Origin: a virus
Taxonomy: Duplodnaviria; Heunggongvirae; Uroviricota; Caudoviricetes
Length of the DNA stretch: 64,000 bases
Strand: one strand, 5' to 3'
Virus record (IMG/VR): IMGVR_UViG_3300018481_000002
Span: 23,199-87,198 of that record
The notes below the pieces were generated by a model that was given only the letters and a program-made list of their open reading frames with translations, made no database searches and was not told where the DNA came from. The translations under genes and the position numbers were made by a program. Below, in pieces: positions 2,663 through 54,116 of this stretch (position 1 is its first letter; every line of letters starts with the position of its first letter).

Positions 2663-3033
2663 CTGTCGTCGTCTTCGGTCGCTTCCAGACGGGCGTTCAG
2701 TTCGGCCTTCGCCTCCTCGAAGTCAGCCTCCACGTCATCGAAGGACATGACGTTCCCGTTGTGGATGATGTACGTGGTGTCGGTGTCAGTGTCGGTGGCC
2801 TCCAGGTAGAAGGCATCCAACCCGAACCGCATCAGCTGGATCGCGGCCACGTTGATGGCCTCGGTGAGGTTGTGGACACCAGCGACGTTGATGCTGAAGT
2901 TGATCTCGCAGTTCTCGACGAGAGGAACCTCGTGCTCCTCGGCGGGCTCCTCGGCCAGTGCATCCTGCTCGTGCTCGTCCTGCTCGTCGGTGGCAACTGG
3001 GAAGTTGTCAGGCTCGGTGGTCTGCTCGGTCAT
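2659..3033 (-). CDS. hypothetical highly acidic protein
   Basis: ORF track; ATGA overlap with downstream gene; D/E-rich. Confidence 0.6.
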   Translation of the reverse strand: MTEQTTEPDNFPVATDEQDEHEQDALAEEPAEEHEVPLVENCEINFSINVAGVHNLTEAINVAAIQLMRFGLDAFYLEATDTDTDTTYIIHNGNVMSFDDVEADFEEAKAELNARLEATEDDDR

Positions 3034-3236
3034 GGGTTCTCCTTCTCGATCGTGATGCCGTGCTTCTGTAGAAGATGGTCAACTACAGACCTTTCAGCCT
3101 GGTTCGGGTGGCCCCTCTTCCCGGACTGGTAGTCACAGGACTTGCAGCGTGCCTGGTAAAACAGGGGCCGCTTGAACCCGTGAGGGAAACCAGTGGCAGG
3201 AAGCACCTTGTAGTGGGCGTGGTAGATGCCAACCAT
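3030..3236 (-). CDS. hypothetical small protein (68 aa)
   Basis: ORF track; TGATG coupling to 3236..3736. Confidence 0.5.
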   Translation of the reverse strand: MVGIYHAHYKVLPATGFPHGFKRPLFYQARCKSCDYQSGKRGHPNQAERSVVDHLLQKHGITIEKENP

Positions 3237-3736
3237 CAGGCGTGGTGCCTCCTCAGGATGTCCATCACGTCAGCCACATCCCAGTCGTGCCCGTGGTGAA
3301 GTTGCTCTCGGCGTCCCGCACGAAGCTCAGCCTCGATGGCGTCAAGGTTGACCCTGATGACGTGGCTCCCGGACGAACGCTGGACAGCACGCAAGATGCT
3401 CCGCAACGCAGACTCCTCCTCCTGTGCAGTGGGCCCCGAGTTGAAGTCGCGGGGCACCAGGACCCGGTTGAGGGCAACGTCGTACTCCATGCCCTGCCGC
3501 TTGGACCGTGTGCCGTCCTTGTTCAACTTGATCGGCGTGTAGTGCCGCACGTAACGGATGGAAGCAGAGTCGTGGGTGGGTCCCTCCTTGATCGAGACGA
3601 TCGGGTCACCGTCGGCGTCCCGGACGTCCCCCCGAGCCTTCAACGCTGCGACAGCCTCCGCCACGTCCGCGACCTGACGCATCTCGTCGCGATCCATCGG
3701 GGTGGGAGTCCAGGTGACGACCTTGGTTGCGGTCAC
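3236..3736 (-). CDS. hypothetical protein (166 aa)
   Basis: ORF track; coupled to neighbours. Confidence 0.6.
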   Translation of the reverse strand: MTATKVVTWTPTPMDRDEMRQVADVAEAVAALKARGDVRDADGDPIVSIKEGPTHDSASIRYVRHYTPIKLNKDGTRSKRQGMEYDVALNRVLVPRDFNSGPTAQEEESALRSILRAVQRSSGSHVIRVNLDAIEAELRAGRREQLHHGHDWDVADVMDILRRHHA

Positions 3737-4032
3737 GGGGAACCCTGAGGCTCCGCATCACCGACGTAGCGGGCGTAGATGTCCACCATGTACGGCGGTC
3801 CCTCGTTGTCGCCCTCGATACGACGAGACACAACCTCGAAACCCTCCGCGAACGCCTTCACGGTGCCGTTCTTGAAGCGGGTCACCGTCCCATCCCGGAC
3901 GTTCTCCTTCAACCGAGCCCATTCACCGGGCTTCTTCTTGAGCTCCTCAGCGATGGGAGCCCACTTGCTGGGCCGTCCCACACTGCCGTCCCTGCCATCG
4001 GGAGGAGGCTCCCTCCAGTCGATGTCCACCAT
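3733..4032 (-). CDS. hypothetical protein (99 aa)
   Basis: ORF track; ATGA overlap. Confidence 0.6.
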   Translation of the reverse strand: MVDIDWREPPPDGRDGSVGRPSKWAPIAEELKKKPGEWARLKENVRDGTVTRFKNGTVKAFAEGFEVVSRRIEGDNEGPPYMVDIYARYVGDAEPQGSP

Positions 4033-4033
4033 G

Positions 4034-4393
4034 TCATGCTCCTCTCGTTGTGCTCAGGATGCTGCTGATCGCAGCGTCGATGTCCTCTTCAGGGACTACA
4101 CGCGTCAGGTCTACTTTGCTGATCCGCTTTCGGAACAGCTCGTTGTCACTGGGGGCATCACCTTTGTTGCCTCGGTACTGCTCGATGTATCGCTGCTGGT
4201 CAGGATCCCAACGGTAGACCCGCCAGTTATTGTAGAACGTTTTGTTCCACTTGTAGATCCCCTTCTTGGCTTTTTGTAGGGATTCGTGGTGCCGGATCTG
4301 ACCGGCCATCGAACCTCCCTGCCACAGCAGCCACTCAGGCGGCGGAGGGAACTCTCCCTCCAGGGGCGGGTAAGCCTTCTGGCTGTATGTCAT
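4034..4393 (-). CDS. small protein, TDEE-tail family variant (..EEDIDAAISSILSTTRGA)
   Basis: ORF track; C-terminal motif. Confidence 0.6.
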   Translation of the reverse strand: MTYSQKAYPPLEGEFPPPPEWLLWQGGSMAGQIRHHESLQKAKKGIYKWNKTFYNNWRVYRWDPDQQRYIEQYRGNKGDAPSDNELFRKRISKVDLTRVVPEEDIDAAISSILSTTRGA

Positions 4394-4806
4394 GTGACCT
4401 CCTCAGTCCATGCCAACGTGATGGACGCACCACTGCGCGTCCACGTCTCCTCGTAGTTGTTGACCTCGTCAGCCTTCGTGTAGTTGGTGCGGTGGAACCC
4501 CATGTCAAGCAAGCCTCGGCGGATCAGCTTCCTCTCGTACGCCCGGTTCGCAAGCCGACCCTTCTGGATGCTCGCCATCGCATCGGCGACGTCCTGCTCG
4601 GTCACCAGGTTCTCAAGATCCCTGGCGGCTACGTTGCGGAAGAAATCCCCCTCGCTGCAGCACCAGCCGTCGACGAGGTTCGACTTGTCTCTACCCTTAC
4701 CCGGGTATCGAACCTTGTTCACGAGCGTCACCCGCGTGCCAGGGGCGAGGTTGTGGCCCCACTCCTCTTCGTCGCCTGTGATGACTACCAGGTCACCTTC
4801 CTTCAT
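4390..4806 (-). CDS. small protein, TDEE-tail family (GDLVVITGDEEEWGHNL; internal EQDVADAMASIQKG + 45 aa extension)
   Basis: ORF track; ATGA coupling; family motifs. Confidence 0.65.
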   Translation of the reverse strand: MKEGDLVVITGDEEEWGHNLAPGTRVTLVNKVRYPGKGRDKSNLVDGWCCSEGDFFRNVAARDLENLVTEQDVADAMASIQKGRLANRAYERKLIRRGLLDMGFHRTNYTKADEVNNYEETWTRSGASITLAWTEEVT

Positions 4807-5129
4807 GACTTCTCCCTCCCGCAGGTGCAGGTGGGACAGTGGGGACGCGGAGGTGGGCGTGTCTTGATGGCCGCGATGGCCTCAGCCACCTCAGCTTCTA
4901 GGCTGAGGACAACCTCCAAGTCGGCCTCGGATACCCACCAACCGGTGTCGTCCGCTGTCGGGTCCTCTGGGTAGCAGAGCCACCCTGGGGCAGTGTCGTC
5001 CTCGTCTTCCTCGTTCTTGGTGTCGAGAACAACCCGCGTCTCGTTCTTGAAGTTGTGTCCCCAACCGGAGCTGTCGCCTGTGACGACAGCGACGTCACCC
5101 TTCTGGTAGCGGAAGACTCTCGCCCTCAT
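4803..5129 (-). CDS. small protein, TDEE-tail family (GDVAVVTGDSSGWGHNF; EAEVAEAIAAIK)
   Basis: ORF track; ATGA coupling; family motifs. Confidence 0.7.
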   Translation of the reverse strand: MRARVFRYQKGDVAVVTGDSSGWGHNFKNETRVVLDTKNEEDEDDTAPGWLCYPEDPTADDTGWWVSEADLEVVLSLEAEVAEAIAAIKTRPPPRPHCPTCTCGREKS

Positions 5130-5500
5130 GGGGTCACCTGGGTGACGCTGCGGATGCTGGCGAGGGCTTCTTCAACCTCATCATCGGACGGGCCCTCGGC
5201 TACGACGATGCGTCCGTTCACCGTGTGACAGTCTTCGTCCGACCCGTACCGGTCGAAGACATCCCACCTGACGCTGTACCTTTCTGGCCACAGGTCATCC
5301 CCGCGCTGCTCGTTGTTTTCGAATCCCATGTAACCGGAGCGGTCCGTGCCAACTCTGGTTACCGTCCCCACGGAGAACCCTTGGCTCGTCCAGGATCCTT
5401 TCCTTGAACGGGCGCTTTCACTCTCGAAGTCCGGAATCAACTGGATCCGATCCCCGACCTTGAACCGAGGCTCCGGGGGATCGTCGTAGTTCTGGCTCAT
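5126..5500 (-). CDS. small protein, TDEE-tail family (SDDEVEEALASIRSV)
   Basis: ORF track; ATGA coupling; family motif. Confidence 0.7.
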   Translation of the reverse strand: MSQNYDDPPEPRFKVGDRIQLIPDFESESARSRKGSWTSQGFSVGTVTRVGTDRSGYMGFENNEQRGDDLWPERYSVRWDVFDRYGSDEDCHTVNGRIVVAEGPSDDEVEEALASIRSVTQVTP

Positions 5501-5775
5501 GTCTTCCCCTTGATAGACTGGATCGCCTGGTGGATCTCCTTCGGGTCCACAGCTACACCGACCAGGTCAGACTCAGCCACCCACGCAGTCCAGATCCTGG
5601 GCTTCTCCTCGAACCTGTAGATGGGGGCCACGTACCAGGCGGGGAAGTCGTGGTACCCGGGGTCGTACTTCTCCCGGTACTCCAGGAGGACAACCTCTGT
5701 GCCTGCGGGGAAGGCGTGGTCGATGTCCGCTGCGTCATCCTTCACGAGGGCGAAGTCCCCTACCTTGAACAGCAT
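5497..5775 (-). CDS. small protein, TDEE-tail family (DPKEIHQAIQSIKGKT)
   Basis: ORF 5497..5820; start placed at internal ATG (MLFKVGDFALV) to reduce overlap with 5735..6079; start uncertain. Confidence 0.5.
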   Translation of the reverse strand: MLFKVGDFALVKDDAADIDHAFPAGTEVVLLEYREKYDPGYHDFPAWYVAPIYRFEEKPRIWTAWVAESDLVGVAVDPKEIHQAIQSIKGKT

Positions 5776-6079
5776 TGCTTGCCCTTTCGATGCTTCGGAT
5801 GGCTGTCTGAATTTCTTCATCAGTCGGTGCCGCTGACTCCAGGTCCTGGACGGCGACGTACCAGCCTCGGCTTCCGTCTCTGGAGGCGCAATCCCAGCAA
5901 GGGAACATGTTGCCCCCGACGGCTCTGCCTTCCTCCATGTAGTGCACGGCTTCGACGATGGTCCCGACCTCGAAGTGGTGCGCCATTTGGGCCGTATCTC
6001 CGGTCACCCTCAACAGGTCACCCTCGCGGAACTCGCGGGTGTCGATCAGCCCCTCTAGGTGCTTCGCCAGGTCGCTCAT
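5735..6079 (-). CDS. small protein, TDEE-tail family (GDLLRVTGD; PTDEEIQTAIRSIERAS)
   Basis: ORF track; family motifs. Confidence 0.65.
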   Translation of the reverse strand: MSDLAKHLEGLIDTREFREGDLLRVTGDTAQMAHHFEVGTIVEAVHYMEEGRAVGGNMFPCWDCASRDGSRGWYVAVQDLESAAPTDEEIQTAIRSIERASNAVQGRGLRPREG

Positions 6080-6504
6080 AGGTCACACTTGTGGTCGTTG
6101 ATGACTCGGTTGATGGTGTCCACGTGGGCGTGCTGGGTTTGTAGGACAACCAGCCCGCATGTGTCGTGTGTCAGCTCCCAGAACTCCCTGACTGATCGCA
6201 CCGTGAACTCGCCTGGGTCAGCGCCGTGCAGTTCGACCAGGGCGGACACGAGGTCCGTCTTCTCCTGGTCGGTGATCCCCGGCATCTCTGCCTGACTGAG
6301 ACCGAACACCTCAGCGATCTCCTGATCGGTTACCGGGCTGGTCTTCCACGGGCTCTGCCTCACGATGTGGTTAGTTTCCCTGCCGTGGGCCAGGGCCTTG
6401 TCCAGGTTCTTCGAGATGATGCCGTTGCCAGTGGCGTTCATCCTGGGCCAGGCCAGTTCACAGTCGTTGCAGTCGTACCAGATGTTCTGGGGGGTGGTGG
6501 TCAT
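6076..6504 (-). CDS. hypothetical protein with internal PVTDQEIAEVFGL motif
   Basis: ORF 6076..6519; start moved to ATG giving ATGA overlap with 6501..6719. Confidence 0.6.
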   Translation of the reverse strand: MTTTPQNIWYDCNDCELAWPRMNATGNGIISKNLDKALAHGRETNHIVRQSPWKTSPVTDQEIAEVFGLSQAEMPGITDQEKTDLVSALVELHGADPGEFTVRSVREFWELTHDTCGLVVLQTQHAHVDTINRVINDHKCDL

Positions 6505-6719
6505 CGCGTTGTGCTCCACTCCCCGTACCTGACGGACCGGACGAACACCTCCACGGCGTGACCGTTCAACGTGTTTGCCCGCTCATCTCCGGTGTAGTAG
6601 TACGCACCGTCGTCGCCGTGCTTCGGGTTGCATCCCTGGGCTTCACAGTCGACCCGCGACGTGTACTCCAGGTGTGTTCCAGCAGGAGGGAGTTGGGTGT
6701 CTTTGATGACGTCCATCAT
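6501..6719 (-). CDS. hypothetical small protein (72 aa)
   Basis: ORF track; ATGA coupling. Confidence 0.5.
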   Translation of the reverse strand: MMDVIKDTQLPPAGTHLEYTSRVDCEAQGCNPKHGDDGAYYYTGDERANTLNGHAVEVFVRSVRYGEWSTTR

Positions 6720-6961
6720 CGCTTCACCTTCTTGATAGATGCGATGGCTTCTGCGACCTCACCGTCAGACACGTGCTCCAACCGGAGACCGTCACCGATG
6801 ACCATGCTCGGGTGGTAGGCGCAGATGTGGTTCCAAGCATCGTTAACACAGTTGTCCAGTTGGCCGAACTCGTAGTCGCCGTTGGAGCACAACCCGCACT
6901 CCACGTAGCCATCGTTGATCAGCATGTACTGGAGGAACTGCTGCACCTGGTCGAGGTCCAT
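6716..6961 (-). CDS. small Cys-rich protein, TDEE-tail family (SDGEVAEAIASIKKVKR)
   Basis: ORF 6716..7132 trimmed: upstream 57 codons are Arg-rich frame artefact; internal ATG at 6961 abuts stop of 6961..7317. Confidence 0.6.
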   Translation of the reverse strand: MDLDQVQQFLQYMLINDGYVECGLCSNGDYEFGQLDNCVNDAWNHICAYHPSMVIGDGLRLEHVSDGEVAEAIASIKKVKR

Positions 6962-7266
6962 CAGGGCTCTTCGTGGGTGCAGTCCGGGCAGTCGTGCAAC
7001 TTCTTCTTCACCGGCTGGATCCCCATCAACGCCATGAACTCGGCGTCCAAGTCCGCCTCGGAGATGTCGAGGTCGAGGTCTCTCCTCAACCACCACCCCA
7101 TCGACTTGCCGTTCTCGTCCCGGATGAGCCACGTGCTGTCACCCTTGTCGTACTCGTCCGTGAACCCGACGTCGCCCACGTTGACGTCGTTGTTCCAGGT
7201 GTTCTTCTTGGTGATCACGACCCGGTCGCCGGGCCTCAGTCGCCGTGCGACTTTCTTCTTCGTCAC
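6961..7266 (-). CDS. small protein, barrel-like GDRVVITK N-term, variant tail (EADLDAEFMALMGIQP)
   Basis: ORF 6961..7317; GTG start at 7266 gives GTGA overlap with ligase stop. Confidence 0.5.
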   Translation of the reverse strand: MTKKKVARRLRPGDRVVITKKNTWNNDVNVGDVGFTDEYDKGDSTWLIRDENGKSMGWWLRRDLDLDISEADLDAEFMALMGIQPVKKKLHDCPDCTHEEP

Positions 7267-8120
7267 AGCACCTCCAAGACAGCCTTGTTGACGTGCTTCA
7301 TCTGCGAGGTCAAGCACTCGTCGGGACGCTTGTCGTCCCTCTTGCGGAGCAGGGTGGGCTGATACAGACGCCCGTTTGCACCCACGTACAGGTACTTCAC
7401 CTCCACGACATCACCCACGGCGATGGTGTCGTGTTTCTCCTTGCCGATGAGGCTGGTCCGACCAACCTCAACCACCCGGTCTAGGTGACCCGGTATCCCG
7501 GTGGTCTCGGTCCGCTGGGTCATACCCAACTTGATGGACTCCTTGCCGTCGTCGCGGACAGCCAACACCTCACAGTCAGCGGTCGTCACGAACTTCAACT
7601 TCGTCCACTCCATCGTCCGCGCACCAGACCGGTACGGCGACGACGCGTCCTTGAAGATCAGACCCTCGAAGTTGTTCCGCAGCGCGTACTCAGCCAACGA
7701 AACCTTCTCCTCGAACGTCCGAGCCTGAGGCACCAGCTTGATCGCCGGGTTCCCCTTCGCCCACAGGTGGAACGTGTGCTCCAACACGAACCGACGGTCA
7801 GTCAACGGCATCGTCGGGTCCGTCGCCGGGGACTGCGGGATGTCGAACACCCAGAACACCCCGTCCACCAACTCCCCGTCCAGGATGAACGACTGCGGGT
7901 TGGGGTCGTTGGGGAACCGGAACTCCATCAACGCCTTCGGGAGACCCTTCGTGTACGGGGTGCCGTTCCTGGTCAGGGCAGTCGGCGGGTAGTCACCACC
8001 AGGTGAGCACAGCAAGATGCGGTGCCCGTCAAGCTTCTGCTCGGCGACCTTGTTGGGGTCCTCCAGGTACGCCCGGAGCTGGTTCAGGTTGGCCTCTTCA
8101 GCCAGTTGGGGGAAGATCAT
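7263..8120 (-). CDS. lig: ATP-dependent DNA ligase (compact, 285 aa)
   Basis: motif I KLDGHR, motif III EGLIFKD, motif IV DASSPY, motif V WTKLKF; ctaGGAGG RBS. Confidence 0.8.
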   Translation of the reverse strand: MIFPQLAEEANLNQLRAYLEDPNKVAEQKLDGHRILLCSPGGDYPPTALTRNGTPYTKGLPKALMEFRFPNDPNPQSFILDGELVDGVFWVFDIPQSPATDPTMPLTDRRFVLEHTFHLWAKGNPAIKLVPQARTFEEKVSLAEYALRNNFEGLIFKDASSPYRSGARTMEWTKLKFVTTADCEVLAVRDDGKESIKLGMTQRTETTGIPGHLDRVVEVGRTSLIGKEKHDTIAVGDVVEVKYLYVGANGRLYQPTLLRKRDDKRPDECLTSQMKHVNKAVLEVL

Positions 8121-8412
8121 GGGAGCCTCCTAGGGCTTCTCGGATGGAGGCGATTGCCCCCGCTACCTCTTCGTCGGACACCTCAAGTTGGACGCCGTGC
8201 TTGTCGATGTTCAGAGGGTGGTGGTTGTCAGGTGATTCCTCAAGTCGGTAGTTGTACCCGTCCAGTCGCACACTGACTATGTCCTCCTCGTAGTAGTTGT
8301 GTGTGTCCACTACAACCCCACGAAACCCGTTCTCCTGGACGGGGTGCGACCACCCCCTCAGCTCCTTCGTCAGGATGATCCGGTTACCGATCTTGAAGTC
8401 GCTTCTTCTCAT
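8098..8412 (-). CDS. small protein, TDEE-tail family (SDEEVAGAIASIREALGG)
   Basis: ORF track; family motif; 22-nt overlap with ligase start. Confidence 0.65.
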   Translation of the reverse strand: MRRSDFKIGNRIILTKELRGWSHPVQENGFRGVVVDTHNYYEEDIVSVRLDGYNYRLEESPDNHHPLNIDKHGVQLEVSDEEVAGAIASIREALGGSHDLPPTG

Positions 8413-8467
8413 GGCCTCCTCTTCCCAGTGGGGGCCGATTGCTCGACCCCCACCTCGACCTTGGTTG

Positions 8468-9136
8468 TCACACGTCGAACGTGAAGTCCAACGCCGACAA
8501 CGCCTGGTACTCCCGCACCGACTTCATCGGGTCCTCCACCGTCTCCGGGCGAAGGTTGTGCATCAGCAGGTACATGTACGACGGAGCCTGCGAACCCTCA
8601 CGGGCCTCCTCGGCGACCGTCTTGTGCTCGAAGTCGTGGTCGTCCTTGTCCTTCGAGTGGATCAGGCTCACCGTGGTGCCGTCACGCAGCACCGCGTACA
8701 GGTTGCGAACATCCCAACGCAGGAACGGCGGCAACGCAGCCGGGGGGAACGCAGCGATGAACCGCTCGTGGAACGACTCCACCGCCTCACGCACACGGCT
8801 CTCCTCGATGGGCTCACCCTTCTGCTGCTCGTACTGCTTCTTCACGCCCTCCACCAAAGTCGGGCGCGCCTCCAGCAGTTCGTCCACAGACAGCGGACGC
8901 CAACCCTCGACAGCCATCACCATCCCGAAGGAGTCCTCGGGGTAGCGGAAACCGGAGTCGAACCCAGCGAGCATGGACTCGGCGGGGTCGCCTGGGAGCT
9001 GGCCGATGAGCTCAACCAGCGGGTCGTTCGGGTCGCCCTTCAGGGCGTACATCTTGCTGGGCAGGTCCCATCCCTGGTTGGCGAGGTCGTCAGCCAAATC
9101 CTTCAGACGGGTGTCCAAAACCTCATTCGTTGTCAT
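8468..9136 (-). CDS. hypothetical protein (222 aa)
   Basis: ORF 8468..9310 trimmed to ATG (MTTNEVLD) preceded by GAGGAGG; upstream part Arg-rich. Confidence 0.6.
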   Translation of the reverse strand: MTTNEVLDTRLKDLADDLANQGWDLPSKMYALKGDPNDPLVELIGQLPGDPAESMLAGFDSGFRYPEDSFGMVMAVEGWRPLSVDELLEARPTLVEGVKKQYEQQKGEPIEESRVREAVESFHERFIAAFPPAALPPFLRWDVRNLYAVLRDGTTVSLIHSKDKDDHDFEHKTVAEEAREGSQAPSYMYLLMHNLRPETVEDPMKSVREYQALSALDFTFDV

Positions 9137-9335
9137 GTGCAACCTCCTCAGTTGCTTGCGGGGTCGAAACAACGCGCTCAGTGCGCGTCGGCCTGCGGCC
9201 AGAAACTTCATAGGTGCCCTCGGTCTGACGGTCCACCCAGCCCTGACCATCCTTATCGTCTGCAAACTGACCCACGTACTGCTCAGGATCAACATCTGTG
9301 CGATGTACATAGGTGTTGTAGCCCCGGTTGGCCAT
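9123..9335 (-). CDS. hypothetical small protein (70 aa)
   Basis: ORF track; TGATG coupling to WGR gene. Confidence 0.4.
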   Translation of the reverse strand: MANRGYNTYVHRTDVDPEQYVGQFADDKDGQGWVDRQTEGTYEVSGRRPTRTERVVSTPQATEEVAHDNE

Positions 9336-9943
9336 CAGAGACCAGTTGCCACGTGTCCATTGAGGCTGCCAGCCATCAGCTTCTGCATCAGGGTCGCACG
9401 AACCAGACCCATCGAGGTACTCACTTCCTCGTGCTTGCTGGTGATCTCCGCGAACACCGCCTCCAGGGCGTCGAACTCCGACAGGGCCTGGTCGAAGTCC
9501 ATCTCGTCGGCCTGCGCCAGAAGACGTTGCGCTCGGTTGGAGAAGTCTTGGTAGTGCTTGAGGACGACAGCCTTGGAGCCGTCGAACTCGCCGGATGCGA
9601 TGGCCTCGCTGAGTTCACGTCCGATGGGTCCAGCGTCACCCTGCGCGGCGTACGAGATGGCGTTCTCGGTCGCAGCGAACGCGAACTCGGACACCTGGGA
9701 GTCGTATCCCTTGGACCGCTTCGAGTACACCTGGCGGAGAGCCACATCGTTGGCGTCCGAGTAGCTGCCGTACCGGGTAGCGCTGGACTGCCCAGCGGTG
9801 CCGATGCGACCCCACCGGAGGATCACGAAGTTCGACTCCGTCAGGATCACTTCGTAGAACTTGCGGCTGCTGCCCTGGATGTAGTGCATGCGCCATCCCT
9901 GGGCGGGAACAGTCACGTCGATCACCTTCGCCTTCGTTGCCAT
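9335..9943 (-). CDS. WGR-domain protein
   Basis: KFYEVILTE...FVILRWGRIGTAG = WGR signature. Confidence 0.7.
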   Translation of the reverse strand: MATKAKVIDVTVPAQGWRMHYIQGSSRKFYEVILTESNFVILRWGRIGTAGQSSATRYGSYSDANDVALRQVYSKRSKGYDSQVSEFAFAATENAISYAAQGDAGPIGRELSEAIASGEFDGSKAVVLKHYQDFSNRAQRLLAQADEMDFDQALSEFDALEAVFAEITSKHEEVSTSMGLVRATLMQKLMAGSLNGHVATGL

Positions 9944-9944
9944 G

Positions 9945-10382
9945 TCAGCCTTCTTCCTCCGCCTTCACGGCGAGGTAGGTCTGTTCACTGGCGGTGAGTT
10001 GACGCCAGTAGATTCTGGTGTTGGGGATGTTTCCGACGTTCTCGTAGTCGATGGAGAGTTCGTCTTCGGAGTCGTACTCCTTGTCGGGGTCCCAGGTGTA
10101 TTCGCCACGGTCGAGGTACTCGATGCCGACCTGGACGTTGCCTACGACGATGCGGCGTTGCCGTTGGCTCGCCAGAACGTTGCCCTTGCGGCCCCATTCC
10201 TTGAGGCACTCGTCGCAGACGCTGATCTCGATCTCGGTGCCGTCCATCGGGTCGAACACGGTGGACCCGTAGTGCCCACCAGTGGTGAACGCGGTCCCTT
10301 CGGAGGGTTGGTTGATGCTGCCCTCGAAGACGTTGTCGAGCGGCTTGTCACAACGGATGCAGGGGAGAGCGGACTTGCTCAT
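9945..10382 (-). CDS. zinc-ribbon protein (CIRCDKP...CDEC)
   Basis: ORF 9945..10616 trimmed to ATG at 10382 (MSKSALPC), 1 nt after stop of upstream gene. Confidence 0.6.
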   Translation of the reverse strand: MSKSALPCIRCDKPLDNVFEGSINQPSEGTAFTTGGHYGSTVFDPMDGTEIEISVCDECLKEWGRKGNVLASQRQRRIVVGNVQVGIEYLDRGEYTWDPDKEYDSEDELSIDYENVGNIPNTRIYWRQLTASEQTYLAVKAEEEG

Positions 10383-10383
10383 G

Positions 10384-10812
10384 TCAGCCCCTTTCCAGGA
10401 GCGCTTGGATGGATGCGATGGCTTCGTCGACGTCGACCTCAGCGGTCGCCTGCGGTCCAGTGGGAGCCTTCCCGTTCTTCCACAGGGGATGCTTCTTGGT
10501 GACGGTGCCCACTGGGAGGTGGTAGGTCTCGATCCACTCGCCGCCGTGGTTTTCGTACACACGGTGGGAGCGGGTGGTGACACCGCTGTTGCGGTTGGCG
10601 TTGGCGCTGATGTCACGCTTGACCAGGCTCATGCTGTCCAACTTCGTGAACAACCCGGTCACCGTGTACGTGTGGTCCTCGATCGGACCGTCGTAGCGGA
10701 CTCGACGCTTCACGGTCTTGTCGTACGGCTCCGCCCACAGCCCGTACTCGACCTCTCTGGGGAAGTCATCAGGGCTGCTGGCAGACCACTTGTTCGTACC
10801 GCGCCTAGCCAT
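10384..10812 (-). CDS. small protein, TDEE-tail family (VDVDEAIASIQALLERG)
   Basis: ORF trimmed to MARRGTNKW; paralog of 10805..11170 (HLPVGTVTKKHPLW vs HIPKGSKWADHPF). Confidence 0.6.
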   Translation of the reverse strand: MARRGTNKWSASSPDDFPREVEYGLWAEPYDKTVKRRVRYDGPIEDHTYTVTGLFTKLDSMSLVKRDISANANRNSGVTTRSHRVYENHGGEWIETYHLPVGTVTKKHPLWKNGKAPTGPQATAEVDVDEAIASIQALLERG

Positions 10813-11170
10813 CGCTGCGCTCCAGGAGGACTGAGGTGATGGACGCGATGGCCTTGCTGACCTGCGCATCCGATGGGCCCTTGATGGTTGCCTTCGTGGA
10901 ATGCTTCGCCTGCACGAAGGGATGGTCAGCCCACTTGGATCCCTTGGGGATGTGGTGGAGTTCCACCCACTCGTCAAGTTCGTGGTCCCAGGCGTAGACG
11001 TAAGCGTCAGCGACCAGGGTGCCGTTCTGCTCGTGGCCAGGGCTCTGGGAGATGGACGCCTTGGCGTGCCCCAGAGAGGGGTGGGTTTTGAAAGTGGACG
11101 CCCTGGGGTAGAAGTGCGTGGCGTACAGGTACGGCCTAGCGAACTTCAACGGGTCAGGTTTGGCGTGCAT
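10805..11170 (-). CDS. small protein, TDEE-tail family (QVSKAIASITSVLLERSDG)
   Basis: ORF trimmed to MHAKPDPL with AAGGAGG RBS. Confidence 0.6.
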   Translation of the reverse strand: MHAKPDPLKFARPYLYATHFYPRASTFKTHPSLGHAKASISQSPGHEQNGTLVADAYVYAWDHELDEWVELHHIPKGSKWADHPFVQAKHSTKATIKGPSDAQVSKAIASITSVLLERSDG

Positions 11171-11238
11171 GCGTGGCCTCCTTGAGCCTGCGGTCGGAGT
11201 GTACCTCGATGGTGTCACCGAGCACCGACATCCAGAAC

Positions 11239-11280
11239 CAAAAATCGGTGGGGGTGTGGTCCGGCACCGATGTTCGGTTT
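11239..11280 (-). promoter_or_regulatory. conserved 40-bp intergenic element, copy A (minus strand AAACCGAACAtcggtgCCGGaccaCACCCCCACCGATTTTT)
   Basis: near-identical element at 15829, 24404, 30859, 53875; lies 20-70 nt upstream of next minus-strand start. Confidence 0.5.
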
Positions 11281-11281
11281 G

Positions 11282-11725
11282 CTAGTAGGTGGGGTGCTTG
11301 TAGCCTTCGATCAGTTCCGTCATCTCGTACAACTGGTGCTTCAACAACTCGTGGGCACGCTTGGCGCGTGGCGAGTGAAGGTCACCTTCGATGATGTCCA
11401 TCAGCTCGTGGCTGGGAGTGTCCTCGTGCAGCCCATCGGTCAGGCCGAACACGTCCAGGACTTCCTCGTCGGTCACCTCGTCGACGTTGCCGGTGAGGCG
11501 GACCTTGTCCCTGCCTATCCAGTACAGCTGGGTTCCTTGGTCCGGCCTAGGGACGGTCCCAGCCTCCATGTCGTCCCCGACAGCCAGGTTGCCCTCCGAG
11601 TGCCGGTAGGTGCCGGAACTGAACGTGTATCCGTCCACGCCGTGCACCAACAGCCGGTCACCCACCTTCCAACGCTGGGTCTTGACTACCACTTCGACGA
11701 TGTCGCCGACCCGGTACTCAGGCAA
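11282..11725 (-). CDS. small protein with GDIVEVVV barrel motif and internal VTDEEVLDVFGL motif
   Basis: ORF track; family motifs. Confidence 0.65.
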   Translation of the reverse strand: MPEYRVGDIVEVVVKTQRWKVGDRLLVHGVDGYTFSSGTYRHSEGNLAVGDDMEAGTVPRPDQGTQLYWIGRDKVRLTGNVDEVTDEEVLDVFGLTDGLHEDTPSHELMDIIEGDLHSPRAKRAHELLKHQLYEMTELIEGYKHPTY

Positions 11726-12041
11726 GGCCGAACAACTCCTTCACCTCTTCATCGGTGACCTGGTCATACGGGAGCACCATCTGAATGCCCTTGTAGAAGA
11801 CGTCGACGAAGAACCCATGCTCACCCTTCTGGTTGGCCAGCACGACCATGCCGTCATTGGGGGTGTAACGATCCCTGTCGAAGTTGTACCCACATACGTA
11901 CACCGGCTCCGTTGGGTCGAAGTCGCCGCCTCCACCAGGACAACTGCTGTGATGTTCGGGGAGGATGGTGACCTCCTCACCCTCCTCGAATGTGACTCCG
12001 GCGATGGTGACGTACCGAGGCTTCTTGGTCTTCTTAGGCAA
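11718..12041 (-). CDS. small protein, TDEE-tail family (VTDEEVKELFGLA)
   Basis: tandem paralog, 8-nt overlap junction. Confidence 0.7.
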   Translation of the reverse strand: MPKKTKKPRYVTIAGVTFEEGEEVTILPEHHSSCPGGGGDFDPTEPVYVCGYNFDRDRYTPNDGMVVLANQKGEHGFFVDVFYKGIQMVLPYDQVTDEEVKELFGLA

Positions 12042-12351
12042 GGCCGAACAACTCCTTCACCTCGTCGTCGGTGACAGGCTTGATCTTCGGTTCGACAACC
12101 TGCCGGAGACCTCTCCACACCTGCACCCAGTGCCCGTGGAACCCACCCCGGTCGTTCACAACCAGCTGGCCGTCGTTCAGGTGGTTCTGGTTCCCCTCGG
12201 TGACGTTGTACCCGGCGACGTACTTCACCGAACTGACCCCACTCTTGTAGGTGACGATCACCGTCTCGCCAACCTTGAACTTCGCGGTCACGGTGCGGTC
12301 CTCCGAGTGGAACACCGTGAACTCGACTCCATCCTCAACCTCTTCATCCAA
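12034..12351 (-). CDS. small protein, TDEE-tail family (VTDDEVKELFGLA)
   Basis: tandem paralog, 8-nt overlap junction. Confidence 0.7.
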   Translation of the reverse strand: MDEEVEDGVEFTVFHSEDRTVTAKFKVGETVIVTYKSGVSSVKYVAGYNVTEGNQNHLNDGQLVVNDRGGFHGHWVQVWRGLRQVVEPKIKPVTDDEVKELFGLA

Positions 12352-12679
12352 GACCGAACACCTCCCTCACTTCCTCGTCAGTAACGGGCTTCCATCGGGG
12401 CACGATCAGCAGACGACCGGACGGGTCGTGGGTGTCACACCACCAGCCGCCACCGTCCTCACCTGGGACGTCGTGGATGGCGACCTGGTCCGTCCATGCG
12501 GAGTCGTCCTCGAAGGTGTAGTGCCCCACGTAGCCCTCGAAACCGTTATCGTAGGCGTCGATCATGCGCTTGTCTTTGAGCCAGTGCTCTAGCAAGACCA
12601 CCTCTTCGTCTTCGACGAACGTGACACCGTTGATCTCTTTCGACCTCGGGTAGTCCGGGTGCTTCTTCTTCTTAGCCAT
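12344..12679 (-). CDS. small protein, TDEE-tail family (VTDEEVREVFGLG)
   Basis: tandem paralog, 8-nt overlap junction. Confidence 0.7.
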   Translation of the reverse strand: MAKKKKHPDYPRSKEINGVTFVEDEEVVLLEHWLKDKRMIDAYDNGFEGYVGHYTFEDDSAWTDQVAIHDVPGEDGGGWWCDTHDPSGRLLIVPRWKPVTDEEVREVFGLG

Positions 12680-13172
12680 CGACCCAGTCCGTCACCTCGC
12701 GGCGAACCACCCGACAGTCGTCCTTGAACATGTAGTTGTCGATCCAACCCTGCACCTCATCACGGGTCTTCCCGTCCCAGAGCGTCAAGTCCTCCTGAAG
12801 GGAGGCCCGGTTCTGCTCCATGACACCCCATTCGGTGTGGGTCTCGCCCTTCAACTCCTCGTCAACCCGCACAGCTTCCTGGGTGACAACGGACTGGATG
12901 GAGGCGATTGCAGCCTCTACCTCGGATTCGTCAGGAGCCAGTTCGTGGGCGATGCAGTCCTCGTGGACCCACTTGCCTTTCAAGCCAACGTGGTGAGGTT
13001 TGCCGTCGTAGTCGCCGACCTCGACGACCTCGCACACCTCACCGATCTCGAAGATCGGTTTCCCGTTGTCCCTCACGTGGTACTTGAAGTAGGGCTTCTC
13101 TCTGTGAGGCTCCATCAAGAACTTGGCCTCCGAGACCAGGTAGACGGTGTCACCTCGGTTGTACTTGCTCAC
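12672..13172 (-). CDS. protein with GDTVYLV barrel motif and internal ESEVEAAIASIQSV motif plus 65-aa extension
   Basis: ORF track; family motifs. Confidence 0.65.
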   Translation of the reverse strand: MSKYNRGDTVYLVSEAKFLMEPHREKPYFKYHVRDNGKPIFEIGEVCEVVEVGDYDGKPHHVGLKGKWVHEDCIAHELAPDESEVEAAIASIQSVVTQEAVRVDEELKGETHTEWGVMEQNRASLQEDLTLWDGKTRDEVQGWIDNYMFKDDCRVVRREVTDWVDG

Positions 13173-13462
13173 CGCTCACCTCCCTGGATGCTGGTGATCG
13201 CTTCACGAATGTCGTCGTCGGTCACCGGCTCGAAGTTCGAGACCGCATCGACTGGGAACACCCAGGAGCGGTCGGGGAAAATGACCCCGACGGAGTCGAC
13301 TCTGCCGTTCGTTGTGTTGATGGCTCTAACTTCACCGACGGCCCCAACCACTGGGAAGGGGTCGCGGGTTGGTTTGTTTCTGTAGGCGTCGCTTACGTGG
13401 GGGTCTGAGCGGACCACCCACACCTTCTGGCCGTAGTACCAGCCGTCGACGCCGTCAGGCAC
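13169..13462 (-). CDS. small protein, TDEE-tail family (PVTDDDIREAITSIQGGER; bridges FGLA and AIASI variants)
   Basis: ORF track; ATGA coupling. Confidence 0.65.
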   Translation of the reverse strand: MPDGVDGWYYGQKVWVVRSDPHVSDAYRNKPTRDPFPVVGAVGEVRAINTTNGRVDSVGVIFPDRSWVFPVDAVSNFEPVTDDDIREAITSIQGGER

Positions 13463-13769
13463 CCATCACGCTCTGGATGGATGCGATCGCTGCCTCCACC
13501 TCCGCATCGGACACGGAGTCCATGATGAGCAGCGACTCGTCGGCGAGGTGGTAGCCATGGTTTGCCGTCGACTCGGCGTAGCGGTACTCGTCGAACCTGA
13601 TCCCGTACGTCACACCAACAGCAGGCTTGTTCCTGGCGCTCAACACGTCCGGGTCGTCGAGGAGGGCAACCACCTCGCCACGGTAGTGTTCAGGCCAGAC
13701 ACCGGGGGCGAGTTCGTCCTTGTCCAGGAGGAACCGGTCGCCGGGTTGGAACTTGAAGACCTCCATCAC
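13455..13769 (-). CDS. small protein, TDEE-tail family (SDAEVEAAIASIQSVMGA)
   Basis: ORF track. Confidence 0.65.
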   Translation of the reverse strand: MMEVFKFQPGDRFLLDKDELAPGVWPEHYRGEVVALLDDPDVLSARNKPAVGVTYGIRFDEYRYAESTANHGYHLADESLLIMDSVSDAEVEAAIASIQSVMGA

Positions 13770-13999
13770 TCACCAGCGAGCTTGTGGTACATCCACTCGG
13801 TCCCCTTGGAGATTCCGACGAGTGTCCAAAACAAGATCTGCACGGGCCAAGCCAGTGTGTAGAAGGCGATCTCGGCCCAGGGGGTGCCTTCGCGGTGGCG
13901 ACCCGTGTGGATCGTGCCGGTGGCGATGGCGTGCGTGACGTTCAGGATGCCGATGCCGACGAAGAAGTAGGCGAAGACTGGAAACCATGTCCAATCCAT
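13766..13999 (-). CDS. small membrane protein (2 predicted TM helices)
   Basis: hydrophobic segments FPVFAYFFVGIGIL and LAWPVQILFWTLVGI; ATGA coupling. Confidence 0.6.
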   Translation of the reverse strand: MDWTWFPVFAYFFVGIGILNVTHAIATGTIHTGRHREGTPWAEIAFYTLAWPVQILFWTLVGISKGTEWMYHKLAGE

Positions 14000-14105: not shown

Positions 14106-15809
14106 TCAGACCTTCTCGAAAATCTGCTGCACCGACTCCGGCTTCAACTCGTTCACCGGAATCGTCGCGTCACTGATCTTCTCCAAAAGGCCCAACGGAC
14201 CCTCCGAGTAGCGCATGTCGTAACCGCCACCGATGTACACCGAGTACATCCTGACACCGACACGCTCCCTCTCCTTGTTGAACTTCTCGATCCAGTCCTC
14301 GGCCAAGTTCGCGGCACCATCGGTGATGAACACGATGTCAGCCTTGCCCTTGTTCTCGTCGTCGAACGACTTCGACGCCTTCTCCAACGCCTCGGTCAAC
14401 ACCCCATCGAACTGGGTGCCACCGTTCGCCTGGGTCCCGAGGAAAGCCAGCACCTTGTCGAACGGTCCCTTACCCTCGGGGAAGTCGAAACGCTCTCGGT
14501 CGTTGTTCGACCCGAAGAACATGGCGTAGTAGTCGCGGTCTTCCTCGGCTGCAAACCTTCGCAAAGCCTCCGCGACACCCATCGCCCATCGGAACGGGTC
14601 TCCCTGCATCGACCCGGACTTGTCGATCGCGATCACGATCGGGCCCTTGCCGACGTCTTCGGAGCCACGCATCTTGTACACGAGCAATTCCTTGTCGACG
14701 TATCGACGGAAGAACTCGTACGACGTCTCCTCGGTTGCGAGCAAGGCAAGCTGCGGACGGAGGACTCGCTTGAGGTCGTTGCCGGTTTCGACGTCGTACG
14801 CCTCGTGGGGCACGTCGTTGATACGCTGGGCCTTCACGCCCAGAGCGAATCGCTTCATCCGACCGATGACCTCGGCGAGTTCCTTCATCTCGGCGGTGCG
14901 GAGCTTGTCCGCCATCGCCATCCGCGACTCAGGGTTCATCGAGTACCACTCGCCGTCTTCGAGGCCGATCCCCTTGCGGAGACCCTCGATCTCGGACACC
15001 TCCTTCGTCGCCGCGTCCAGCGCCTCGTGAGCGAGCCGGTCCAGGTCGAGACCATCGAGGGCCTCGTCGAACTGGCGTTCCCACTCAGCCTCCTGCTGGT
15101 TCAGCGCATCCTCGGAGTTCGGGTCGAAGTCCTCGTCACCCTCGGTGGTGAGGTCCTCGTCCTCCAGGTCCTGACCGCCGCCGCCGTCTCCACCCTGGGA
15201 GCCATCGGTGGACGGGCCCTTCTGGCCGGAGTTCTTCTTGCCTCCGCCCTTGCCCTGACCTCCCTGGCCCTGGCCTCCGCCCTGACCCTGACCGCCACCC
15301 GGAGGGGCGTTGGGGTCGGGCTGGTCGACGTTTTGGACACGTGTCAGCATCTCGCGGACGGTCTCGCCCATCGAGTCCAACGCCACGGTCGACATGACCG
15401 GGTCGCTGGCCGTCATCTCCTGGAGGTCCTGGAGCTGCGGGTTGTCCATCATCTCCTGCATGATCCGGCGAACCGGGAACAGGTCTCGTTCGATCTCCCT
15501 CTTGGGGGCCAGCTTGGGTGCGGCCTTGTAGAAGGTGTGGAACAGTGACTCGACGAGCTCGGGCGAGGGGTCGAATCCCTGCCGCTCGCCGCCACGGTGC
15601 TCGTCGCCGACCTCCAGGTCGGAGATCAGGTCGTCCACGGTGCGGGTCTTGCGTGCCTCACCGTAGATCCGCTGGTCCCAGCGGTTCTGCTCGACGACGT
15701 GGCGGTGACGCGGCTTCGGCTGGGACCTCTGGTAGGCAGGGTCGCCAACGATCTCTTGTCCGGTGTTCAGGGCCATTCGTGCCCTGAGCCGGTCCATGAA
15801 GCTGGTCAT
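14106..15809 (-). CDS. vWA (von Willebrand A, MIDAS) protein with Gly/Gln low-complexity linker
   Basis: VIAIDKSGSMQG (DxSxS MIDAS); GGGQGQGGGQGQGGQGKGGGKK linker; GAGGAGG RBS. Confidence 0.8.
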   Translation of the reverse strand: MTSFMDRLRARMALNTGQEIVGDPAYQRSQPKPRHRHVVEQNRWDQRIYGEARKTRTVDDLISDLEVGDEHRGGERQGFDPSPELVESLFHTFYKAAPKLAPKREIERDLFPVRRIMQEMMDNPQLQDLQEMTASDPVMSTVALDSMGETVREMLTRVQNVDQPDPNAPPGGGQGQGGGQGQGGQGKGGGKKNSGQKGPSTDGSQGGDGGGGQDLEDEDLTTEGDEDFDPNSEDALNQQEAEWERQFDEALDGLDLDRLAHEALDAATKEVSEIEGLRKGIGLEDGEWYSMNPESRMAMADKLRTAEMKELAEVIGRMKRFALGVKAQRINDVPHEAYDVETGNDLKRVLRPQLALLATEETSYEFFRRYVDKELLVYKMRGSEDVGKGPIVIAIDKSGSMQGDPFRWAMGVAEALRRFAAEEDRDYYAMFFGSNNDRERFDFPEGKGPFDKVLAFLGTQANGGTQFDGVLTEALEKASKSFDDENKGKADIVFITDGAANLAEDWIEKFNKERERVGVRMYSVYIGGGYDMRYSEGPLGLLEKISDATIPVNELKPESVQQIFEKV

Positions 15810-17400: not shown

Positions 17401-18774
17401 TCACTTACCGGCGTTGGACAGGTTCTGCATCGACGCCGGGTCCAGGTTGAAGATCGACATGCCGACCTCCACCTTGAACGCCTCCGCCTTGGCGATGACC
17501 TCGACCAGCTTCGCGGTGGCCGTGCCAGCCGCCGTCGCCTTGTCGAGGTGCCCCTGCGCCTCGTTGAGCAGACGGTCGGTGTTCTTGACCGCGTCGACAC
17601 CGACCCGCTTCTTGCGGTTGATGTCCATGTCGGAGTCGTTGGCCTGCTTGATCTCCTTCTTCAGGTCCTCCAGACCCTTGAGCAGGTCCAGCGCCGCCTT
17701 CTCGCCGGGGTTGGTGGCGGCCAGGATGACGCCGCGAACGGTGGCCATCTGGTCCTGGAGGCTCCACCACATGTTGGCGAGGATGTCCAGGTCGCCCACC
17801 GTCACCGTCTCGTGGCCACGCACCCAGGCGTTCGCCAGGACAGCGGCCATGCCCTCCACGGCACGACGGTCGGAGATCGTGACCTTCGCAGCCCCGTGCT
17901 GGAGCTCGTCGCGCAGGTCGAAGAAGGCGTCGATCACGGGGTCCGGCACGTCGAGTGCCAGCGACTCCTTGTGGGCCTGGTCCAGGTCGGCGAGCGTCAC
18001 CTGGGTGATGCTCTGCCCGGTCAGGCTGGTGGACACGCCACGACCGGACTGGGCGATGCGAGCGATCGCGTCACCCACCATCTGGGCCTGGTTGGCACGG
18101 TCCTTGATGTACCCGACGATGTAGCGCAGGTGGATGCGGTCCCACAGGGCTGCCTGGTCGGCGTCCGTGTTGAGCTTGTTGGTGCCCGCGATCATCTGGC
18201 GCAGCGGGATGGGCGTCACCACGTCGTTGTGGAACACGCGCTCGTTCAGGGCGGGCATGATGCTGTGCAGCAGCGGGCCGTTGGCGTTGAAGAACTCGTC
18301 CAGGAAGACCTCGGAGGCCTCCGGCATCATGTTCTCCGTGACGCGGCGGACCTTGCCGTCCTTGACCATCGCCTTGATGTCGGGCGCGCCGAACACCTGC
18401 GACGGGTCTGTGGTCTCGTCCAGCGCCGTCTCGAAGTACGTGGCGTCGCTGATGTGGGACGCCATTCGCCGCGACAGCAGCGACTTGGCGGTACCACCCG
18501 GGCCGACCATGAGCAGGTGCTCCTGGGCGACTCGTCCGACCCACGCGCCTTCGATGACGTCCCCGCGCTCCAGGAGCAGCGAGTTCATCTCGTTGACGAT
18601 GGCGTTGACCTTGGCGTTGATCGACGGGTCGATCTTGGGGGCCTGGCCGGTGGCCGCCGCCACGGTGGCCGGGACGACGGTGGGCTGGTTCTCGGTGGTG
18701 GTGGTGGTCATACGGTTCCCCTCCTCAGGGTTGATGTTGGTGTCGTTCGTCGTGTCGTTGCTCGGGTTGGTCAC
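17401..18774 (-). CDS. MoxR-family AAA+ ATPase
   Basis: Walker A MVGPGGTAKS; Walker B VFLDEFFNA; 457 aa. Confidence 0.85.
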   Translation of the reverse strand: MTNPSNDTTNDTNINPEEGNRMTTTTTENQPTVVPATVAAATGQAPKIDPSINAKVNAIVNEMNSLLLERGDVIEGAWVGRVAQEHLLMVGPGGTAKSLLSRRMASHISDATYFETALDETTDPSQVFGAPDIKAMVKDGKVRRVTENMMPEASEVFLDEFFNANGPLLHSIMPALNERVFHNDVVTPIPLRQMIAGTNKLNTDADQAALWDRIHLRYIVGYIKDRANQAQMVGDAIARIAQSGRGVSTSLTGQSITQVTLADLDQAHKESLALDVPDPVIDAFFDLRDELQHGAAKVTISDRRAVEGMAAVLANAWVRGHETVTVGDLDILANMWWSLQDQMATVRGVILAATNPGEKAALDLLKGLEDLKKEIKQANDSDMDINRKKRVGVDAVKNTDRLLNEAQGHLDKATAAGTATAKLVEVIAKAEAFKVEVGMSIFNLDPASMQNLSNAGK

Positions 18775-20782: not shown

Positions 20783-20799
20783 AGATCCGTGACGAAAGA

Positions 20800-22794: not shown

Positions 22795-22796
22795 GG

Positions 22797-24361: not shown

Positions 24362-24400
24362 GTGGTTGCCTCCAGGGGCATTGGGTTGTTTGGACGGATG

Positions 24401-54110: not shown

Positions 54111-54116
54111 AGAACG

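Follow-up and report, generated by a model that had tools for sequence, protein, structure and literature searches.

A repeated intergenic element as a candidate family of promoters in an uncultivated clade of actinobacterial phages

The virus record IMGVR_UViG_3300018481_000002 (Caudoviricetes) carries, at 11280-11239 and at four further places between its genes, near-identical copies of one short element, and the question raised by this repetition is what the element does and what reads it. The positions are those of the stretch of 64,000 nucleotides analyzed here, which spans positions 23,199 to 87,198 of the record and is referred to below as the window. The original prediction offered two functions, namely phage promoters recognized by a dedicated factor or operator sites of a single regulator. 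Our analysis points, on balance, to the first of these: the element is likely to represent a family of internal promoters specific to the phage, each with an invariant docking site upstream. Its consensus is new and comes from an undescribed clade of uncultivated phages; a conserved family of phage promoters is in itself an ordinary kind of signal.

Copies of the element and their anatomy

The window is 100% identical to part of the ENA contig ERZ27251452:k141_6182525 (144,524 bp), with window position 1 at position 80317 of the contig record in reverse orientation, and its flanks were read from this contig. All five copies first reported were recovered at their coordinates on the minus strand. 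They correspond to the five exact occurrences in the window of the 10-mer AAACCGAACA, all of them on this gene-sense strand, where dinucleotide shuffles of the window give an expectation of 0.10 ± 0.36 and none of 100 shuffles reached five. Copies A to D are full and about 45 nt long each. Copy A (11280-11239, AAACCGAACATCGGTGCCGGACCACACCCCCACCGATTTTTGG) consists of the 10-mer (11280-11271), the hexamer TCGGTG at the -35 position (11270-11265) and a -10-like GATTTT (11246-11241); copy B (15869-15829, AAACCGAACAAAGGCACCGACTAACAACCCACCGTTTTTTCC) has its 10-mer at 15869-15860 and a T-run at 15835-15830. The 10-mer of copy C (24443-24404, AAACCGAACAAAGGGTCCGGACACCCCCACCACTGATTTCTGA) occupies 24443-24434, with GATTTC at 24409-24404, and that of copy D (30899-30859, AAACCGAACATCGGCTCCGCACCACCCCACCGCCGTTTTTCC) occupies 30899-30890, with a T-run at 30864-30860. 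Copy E (53908-53875, AAACCGAACATTACACGGGGATACCCCCACCAATGCCCC) is partial, retaining AAACCGAACA and ACCCCCACC and lacking both the GG..CCG block and the T-run. An independent repeat search recovers copies A to D as a four-member family of 46 nt with 61-80% identity, and an nhmmer profile built from the five copies matches those five only in 79 kb of the phage (E-values of 3e-9 to 3.5e-4). The 5' edge of the element is sharp, with no conservation upstream of AAACC. From the T-run to the next start codon there are 69 nt in copy A, 20 in B, 42 in C and 28 in D, and copy E lies 263 nt from the next start, in agreement with the 20 to 70 nt (260 for copy E) given originally. A degenerate 10-mer, AAACCGAACG, at 36650-36641 on the minus strand, followed by CCGATGA and lying at the end of the gene 36634-36864, is probably not a full member, as it lacks the T-run, the -10 block and the other downstream blocks.

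No close relatives of the window were found in GenBank phages, PLSDB, IMG/VR or GTDB genomes (megablast returned none from GenBank phages and plasmids), and the best cultured match of its ATPase, at 44%, is from Microbacterium phage Pumpernickel. Contigs and loci that are related or matched are labeled L009 to L020. Homologues of the ATPase, 59-61% identical, located L009 to L011, in which the gap upstream of the ATPase gene is missing or different, so that copy C is not positionally conserved. Short forms of the element are present in these relatives, as AATCCGAACAAGCACCACCGATG at L009:16765 and as AATCCGAACAAC where the main operon of L011 begins (L011:2280 region), the latter mirroring copy E. 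Homologues of the VWA-domain protein encoded downstream of copy B yielded five more loci (L016 to L020) that hold eight full copies. These lie at L016:4035 and L016:15323, at L017:10500 (upstream of VWA), at L018:12975 and L018:17730 (the second upstream of a ligase gene), at L019:13134, where the 10-mer is TATCCGAACA, and at L020:9932 (upstream of VWA) and L020:18227, where it is AATCCGAACA. Absence from related genomes had been named at the outset as a ground for abandoning the original prediction; the pattern and profile searches found these eight full copies in five related contigs. One position is orthologous: copy B, L017:10500 and L020:9932 all stand directly upstream of the VWA start (MTSFMDRL or MSTFLDRV), and the VWA proteins of the three phages that share the site are 70-86% identical. 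Apart from this site, the positions of the element vary between phages. A VWA homologue of the clade is also found on a MAG contig labeled Nonomuraea.

Together with the four full copies of the window, these loci bring the full set to 12 copies in six phages, every one of them on the gene-sense strand. A profile built from this set found no further full copy in 244 kb. Beyond these contigs a strict pattern had no match in IMG/VR and four single, chance-level matches in GTDB genomes, and the consensus had no match in GenBank phages. The strict pattern matched once in JGI metagenomes, at L012:1093-1128 (contig Ga0247786_1020867, 1243 bp), probably by chance; this match is followed by a CCCCACCGGTCGGTGGGG hairpin and by GCCGGTTCGATCCCGGC, the latter resembling a tRNA T-arm, and ARAGORN calls no gene there.

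The 12 copies align without gaps, with the consensus (C)AAACCGAACA TTGgcC CCnGAC ...CCCACCGATTTTTGA, and four blocks can be distinguished. The first is WWWCCGAACR (AAACCGAACA in the window), in which CCGAAC is invariant and the whole 10-mer nearly so. Abutting it is a -35-like hexamer, which reads TTGACC, TCGACC, TTGAGT, TTTACC or TTGGTC in the relatives; its forms in the window (TCGGTG, AAGGCA) are degenerate. Next comes a spacer of 17-19 nt, rich in C, containing a semi-conserved CCG.AC and diverging between phages, and the last block is a -10-like (CCCA)CCGATTTT with the consensus CCCACCGATTTT, where the T-run is nearly invariant, one T being present in all 12 copies and two more in 11. The hexamer 17-19 nt downstream of the -35-like block is TAATTT, TACTTT, GATTTT or AATTTT. 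Although the spacers have diverged, the distance from the 10-mer to the T-run and to the -35-like hexamer is constant to within ±1 nt. The T-run stands 7-85 nt from the start codon across the 12 copies, never closer than 7, and in most of them the intervening stretch includes a Shine-Dalgarno sequence. In L019 the ATG comes 7 nt after the T-run without a ribosome-binding site (RBS), a short gap that fits a leaderless transcript starting there.

By the measures applied to host-type promoters, the hexamer at the -35 position shares on average 3.0 of 6 positions with TTGACA over the 12 copies, compared with 1.38 of 6 at random positions of the same sequences. A hexamer of the form nAnnnT is found at 16-19 nt in 8 of the 12, and a joint -35 and -10 criterion is passed by four of the 12 copies and by 0.39% of random positions. 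Generic scans of window regions for sigma-70 promoters and for terminators made no call at the elements.

Hairpins, transcripts and mobile repeats

Several other explanations were considered as well. The upstream stop codon ends 1 nt before the element in copy A and overlaps its first bases in copy D; copy B contains the stop codon of the upstream open reading frame (ORF) at 15848-15846, and copy C lies inside the 3' end of the ORF 24401-25081, with the stop just past the element. The copies thus enter upstream ORFs in different frames or not at all, so the element is not tied to one reading frame, and a coding explanation was dropped on this ground.

An element with its start at or close to stop codons and a T-run at its end could be a factor-independent terminator, in which a hairpin and a U-tract end the upstream gene, and copy A does form a strong hairpin, at -22.9 kcal/mol (z = -2.9 relative to shuffles). 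Three of the copies in relatives, L016a, L020a and L020b, can likewise pair a CGAACAUUGG arm with CCGAUUUUCG. The hairpin is not a property of the family. Copies B to E and most relatives fold no better than shuffles, the z-scores of the eight relative copies running from -1.4 to +1.9; RNAalifold returns 0 consensus pairs over the 12 copies; and a candidate stem joining ATCGG.. with ..CCGAT is paired in 53.6% of cells, compared with 53.5% in shuffles, with no covariation. The sense-strand scan makes no call at the elements yet calls a real hairpin at 31124-31089, and the T-run of copy B and of L017a stands just 20 nt ahead of the next start, too close for a new promoter to fit in between. The folding and covariation results largely refute termination as the function, and we give it almost no credence. 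Rfam at its gathering threshold and ARAGORN found no match at the elements, and with no conserved hairpin the element is neither a terminator nor a structured RNA. A G-quadruplex on the plus strand was also considered and dropped, since the runs would make two tetrads only and are unconserved.

The sense strand is C-rich, G-poor and predicted to be unstructured, and it is this feature, together with the U-run, that could act in the transcript, as a loading site for Rho or an antiterminator, as an RNase cleavage site or as a translation enhancer. The copies lie within operons at gene junctions, invariably in the sense orientation, and copies B and C, which overlap the 3' end of the upstream ORF, will be transcribed if that gene is. 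Sites of the rut type, however, require no fixed sequence, and no Rfam family matches. A role in RNA also leaves the -35-like and -10-like hexamers at canonical spacing in the relatives unexplained, and the RBS-free ATG of L019 fits a transcription start instead. We therefore regard a site acting at the transcript level as improbable.

The variable positions of the element raise the further idea of a selfish or recombinational repeat, whether a mobile mini-cassette, a shuffling boundary or a site for the phage recombinase resembling integron attC, with no regulatory role. Except at the VWA site, related phages carry the element at different positions; copies from the same genome are 61-80% identical; they sit among accessory genes and arrays of paralogues; and the phage encodes a tyrosine recombinase. 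This explanation has very little probability in our estimate. The element shows no terminal inverted repeats, target-site duplications or conserved hairpin, and its conservation in blocks around a diverged spacer indicates that specific contacts are under selection, not that it was copied recently, while the copy upstream of VWA has been kept in three phages whose VWA proteins have diverged to the 70-86% identity given above. The attC-like form in particular was rejected for lack of a conserved dyad or hairpin and of a GTTRRRY-type core common to the 3' ends. The PeSL-type mobile cassettes of T4-type phages, in which an early promoter is joined to a stem-loop, offer a likeness of another kind. 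They too are repeated promoter-bearing intergenic units in plastic regions of small accessory genes, at positions that vary between related phages; the element differs in having no conserved stem-loop, and its copies give no sign of mediating shuffling.

What might read the element

Read as a promoter, each copy would drive minus-strand transcription of the gene that follows it, within an extended block of genes for DNA metabolism and accessory functions, and we infer from the layout that transcription starts at the copies. A dedicated factor would read the 10-mer at about -47 to -38, centered near -42, and recruit RNA polymerase, and the -10 block would be read by a sigma factor. Class II activators sit near -42. 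The proximal subsite of UP elements, at about -46 to -38, is A-rich and shares this position directly upstream of the -35, and the 10-mer, from a genome with 62% G+C, is itself A-rich (6 of 10). What the alpha C-terminal domain reads in UP elements is a degenerate A/T tract, in contrast to the CCGAAC that is invariant across six phages and that points to base-specific recognition. Of the two functions originally offered, promoters for a dedicated factor are favored by the fixed geometry in 12 copies from six phages, by the placement on the gene-sense strand upstream of starts and by the VWA site common to three phages; the identity of the factor is the part reached by inference.

The phage promoter classes of SPO1 and T4 provide the closest models. 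The middle promoters of Bacillus phage SPO1, which depend on gp28, read AGGAGA-N17-18-TTTNTTT; in the MotA-dependent middle promoters of T4 a 9-bp MotA box takes the place of the -35, and T4 late promoters read TATAAATA. As in these classes, a conserved consensus specific to the genome is repeated upstream of a co-oriented subset of genes, a bipartite or tripartite layout keeps its spacing fixed, a sigma gene is present in the phage itself, and an asymmetric, invariant box of 9-10 bp stands at the position of an activator or appropriator. The T-rich -10 is shared with the SPO1 middle promoters. The element differs in that its box lies at about -47 to -38, upstream of the -35 rather than at -30/-35, in that the phage sigma belongs to the FliA/WhiG family and not to the gp28, gp34 or gp55 type, in its new consensus, and in that the link between factor and site is drawn here from the sequence.

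Two versions of this mechanism can be considered. In one, the cognate sigma would be the phage factor of the FliA/WhiG family; in the other, the host housekeeping sigma would act with a phage activator bound to the 10-mer. We find the first more attractive; the -10 core of sigma-28 promoters (GCCGATAA, in which CGA is critical) resembles CCGATTTT. The sigma gene lies about 3.2 kb past the right end of the window (L014:18702-19475, window-equivalent 67184-67957) and encodes 257 aa, matching TIGR02479 FliA_WhiG with 226 bits (cut-off 190) and NF005413 with 212 bits (cut-off 201). Homologues 50-63% identical are present on many contigs of 90-146 kb from the clade, including those of L009/L018, L010 and L011, and a copy 90% identical on a 2.8-kb contig; no FliA/WhiG-family sigma homologue was found in GenBank actinophages.

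The likeness to sigma-28 promoters is partial. The general sigma-28 (FliA/SigD/WhiG) consensus is TAAA-N15-GCCGATAA, and the WhiG promoter of Actinomycetota has been described as a -35 of xT(C/A)Ax, a 16-nt spacer and a -10 of GCCGA, with CGA critical (PMC13595943). The -10 of the element, (A/G)CCGATTT, has the CCGAT core and a tail rich in A and T in common with these promoters; at a 16-nt spacer the -35 pentamer coincides with the hexamer that abuts the 10-mer; and a sigma of this family is encoded by the phage and its clade. The element is distinguished by a -35 of TTG(A/G)N instead of T(C/A)A, by a tail that is T-rich and not ATAA, and by the extra invariant 10-mer upstream. CCGAT itself is found in 6 of the 12 copies (window copy A, L016a, L016b, L019a, L020a and L020b); L017a has GCGAA, copies B and D have CCGTT and copy C has CTGAT. 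Over 79 kb of this phage and 63 kb from relatives, no element has a TAAA-N13-17-CGA(T/A)A site, and the canonical WhiG/FliA consensus was rejected on account of its -35. A sigma-54-like reading of the plus strand (CGGCAC-N5-TTCG, noticed by eye) was also dropped, since it is present in one copy only and is antisense to the genes; moreover, Actinobacteria are not known to carry sigma-54.

A number of observations weigh against the interpretation of the element as a promoter, and some of them bear on the sigma in particular. The critical CGA is present in one of the four full window copies, being absent from B, C and D, and in 6-7 of the 12 overall, and the pentamers at the 16-nt position (TTGAG, TTGAC, TTGGT, TCGGT or AAGGG) include none with T(C/A)A; with this -35 mismatch, and with CGA missing from three window copies, membership of the sigma-28 promoter class is not established. 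The window copies are the weakest by host-type criteria (1-3 of 6 at the -35) and yet keep the 10-mer and the T-run, and an A at the second -10 position is found within the window in copy A only, copies B and D reading GTTTTT or TTTTTT. Some constraint extends over almost all 45 bp, spacer included, which is more than a sigma alone normally needs. No full copy was found in L010 or L011, in 21 kb each. As the genes that neighbor all copies share one direction, co-orientation with genes is inseparable from confinement to a single strand. Finally, the 10-mer occurs alone, in copy E, at L011:2280 and 2348 and upstream of MoxR at L018:7227 and L020:7592, and close to the sigma gene an inverted pair, TGTTCG-N-CGAACA, lies within the spacer of a host-type TAGAGT -10.

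These lone sites bring in the other function first proposed, that of operators of one regulator, and what has held of it is that the 10-mer is a separable module, found in other regulatory regions too where the -10 block is missing. In 244 kb there are 25 occurrences of WWWCCGAACR, compared with 4.3 ± 2.2 expected, with 23 of the 25 on the main gene-sense strand and 12 coupled to promoter-like blocks. The functional unit might then be the 10-mer alone, the only invariant block, acting as the asymmetric operator of a phage regulator such as an immunity repressor, which would bind in one orientation at numerous intergenic sites and, in the manner of stoperators, block or tune transcription, with the downstream blocks incidental or part of the promoter under control. 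The lone 10-mers and the inverted pair beside the TAGAGT -10 are in keeping with this, as is a gene for a tyrosine recombinase (Phage_integrase) in the left flank (L013:17567-18571, about 6.2-7.2 kb past the left end of the window), which hints at a temperate lifestyle or at a function in dimer resolution. The stoperators of Cluster A mycobacteriophages (L5, Bxb1) are 13-bp asymmetric repressor sites that stand alone, at 20-30 per 50 kb. The element resembles them as a short, asymmetric and invariant site in small intergenic gaps, often touching stop codons, held in one orientation relative to transcription and scattered over tens of kilobases; it differs in being sparse, with just 4-5 sites in 79 kb of this phage, or 5-6 when every WWWCCGAACR is counted, and in being coupled at a fixed distance to -35-like and -10-like blocks. 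An isolated operator leaves unexplained the fixed distance from the 10-mer to the T-run and the -35-like hexamer in 12 copies, and a site near -42, upstream of the -35, is in the classic position of an activator rather than of a repressor. On this evidence we hold it unlikely that the 10-mer acts only as an operator.

The site in the TAGAGT spacer fits the binding site of a regulator that is not necessarily activating, and the arrangement as a whole suggests that one DNA-binding protein may read CCGAACA, activating at about -42 in the full elements and repressing over promoter spacers elsewhere. A broader proposal, which we make tentatively and to which we give clearly less than an even chance, is that WWWCCGAACR and CCCACCGATTTT form the promoter code of a new transcription program in a clade of uncultivated actinobacterial phages of about 100-147 kb, achieved through a retargeted sigma or a new activator. 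In the first form, a captured sigma of the WhiG/FliA type would keep the sigma-28 -10 core and use a new recognition element extended upstream; in the second, a monomeric phage activator would dock at about -42 and act as a repressor near the sigma gene, where a host-type promoter overlaps its site.

Should the element be a promoter, it would give a promoter model that could be applied at once to a clade of large soil actinophages so far seen in metagenomes only, would allow the genes of the clade to be sorted into temporal classes from sequence alone, and would pair a phage sigma of the WhiG/FliA type, or an activator, with a defined DNA site in a way that can be tested. Phage homologues of developmental and flagellar sigma factors have been little studied in Actinobacteria, and a cognate promoter set would tell whether the phage sigma runs a phage program or rewires the host.

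Genes around the copies and other repeated sequences

Third-position G+C content and AT skew place nearly all genes on the minus strand at 1-54 kb of the window and on the plus strand at 55-64 kb. The recognizable products are a VWA protein, a MoxR ATPase, an SPFH/Band-7 protein, an AAA ATPase, Ku and an ATP-dependent ligase. Ku and the ATP-dependent DNA ligase form an end-joining pair and the MoxR ATPase has its VWA partner (window 7263-8120, 26047-26925, 14106-15809 and 17401-18774, minus strand), and the set of Ku, ligase, MoxR and VWA recurs in all related contigs. All genes that follow the copies are on the minus strand. Downstream of copy A is a gene for 121 aa with no family match (10805-11170), and downstream of copy B that for the VWA-domain protein of 567 aa (14106-15809), which is conserved across the phage clade; copy C precedes the gene of an AAA+ ATPase of 359 aa (23282-24361) and copy D one for 141 aa with no family match (30406-30831). 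The intrinsic-terminator-like hairpin at 31124-31089 (minus strand; 16 pairs, then CTTTT) lies upstream of copy D, which follows it by about 190 nt in a terminator-to-promoter layout seen once.

Copy E stands at the head of the minus-strand gene block and is separated by a leader of about 260 nt from the gene at 53321-53611 (minus); it is followed by more CGAACA repeats and a GTTC-N5-GAAC dyad. The leader, at 53612-53875, shares patches with L011:2290-2556, for example ACGGGGGGG(C/T)..CGGAAA, which suggests a conserved long 5' leader or control region. Two stretches of 92 nt, 50923-51014 and 53522-53613, are 80% identical; each is the 5' end of a gene, and the two paralogous genes encode small proteins rich in lysine and alanine (MSKQQNTKALQALAAEMGFDLVPAKAKKAKK...). 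The first gene after copy E is one of the pair; these paralogues, which start at 53611 and 51012, are candidate DNA-binding proteins. Adjoining copy E, between the divergent gene blocks, window positions 53950-55240 hold four or five blocks with a 5-bp period, of about 15-30 units each, reading GCCNN on the minus and NNGGC on the plus strand. The blocks may represent an origin, a centromere-like array or a protein-binding array.

A second intergenic family, (T/A)(C/A)CGGACAC[CT]C(G/A)TC..., lies on the minus strand just past stop codons, at 17398, 49073, 50648, 51068 and 51385 and, with copy C, at 24426. Copy C is followed by ACATCCGTCCAAAC, a member of this family, and is the only copy that overlaps it. 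The original prediction had placed a GTGTCCGGA core in the element and related it to separate GGAC-N4-GTCC palindromes of the window. Only copy C bears this out: copy A reads GTGGTCCGG, the kinship does not extend to the other copies, and GGACNNNNGTCC, which has the palindrome pattern, is not enriched in the window (5 found, 4.2 expected). Some members of the second family are palindromes of the GGAC-N4-GTCC type, and in L009 its site reads GTTTGGACG-GA-CGTCCAAAC, perfectly palindromic over 20 bp. Hairpins follow the copies at 51068 and 50648, and compensatory changes distinguish the two (GCGCAG/CTGCGC in one and GTGCAG/CTGCAC in the other); in addition, a similar GACATCCGTCGAAAC occurs just upstream of the sigma gene.

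An element of ACGCGT/TGACGCG repeats followed by TACGCGTAGCGTGAGA...CGTCACG is present twice on the minus strand, at about 20790-20870 and 33990-34110. It contains a host-type -10, TAGCGT, and a 59-nt version of it is 80% conserved in L009 (4938-4996 and 19468-19526). It looks like a repressor-controlled class of early promoter distinct from the element with the 10-mer.

Several RBSs share the extended context GCCC(T/C)(A/T)GGAGGC(A/T), at 30832-30850, 24362-24380, 26926-26945 and 39236-39255 on the minus strand, and GCCTCCTAGGGC is found four times on the plus strand. ARAGORN places a tRNA-Leu (CAA) at 57450-57524 in the plus-strand block, where Rfam at its gathering threshold has no tRNA match. 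A large family of paralogous small proteins is encoded on the minus strand at 1600-13800, 22450-22800, 25080-25480, 34316-34606 and 39973-40299; several members lie in tandem, and they share a C-terminal motif that is roughly (V/I)(T/S)DEE(V/I)xxA(I/L)ASI(Q/K), with PVTDEEVKELFGL as a variant.

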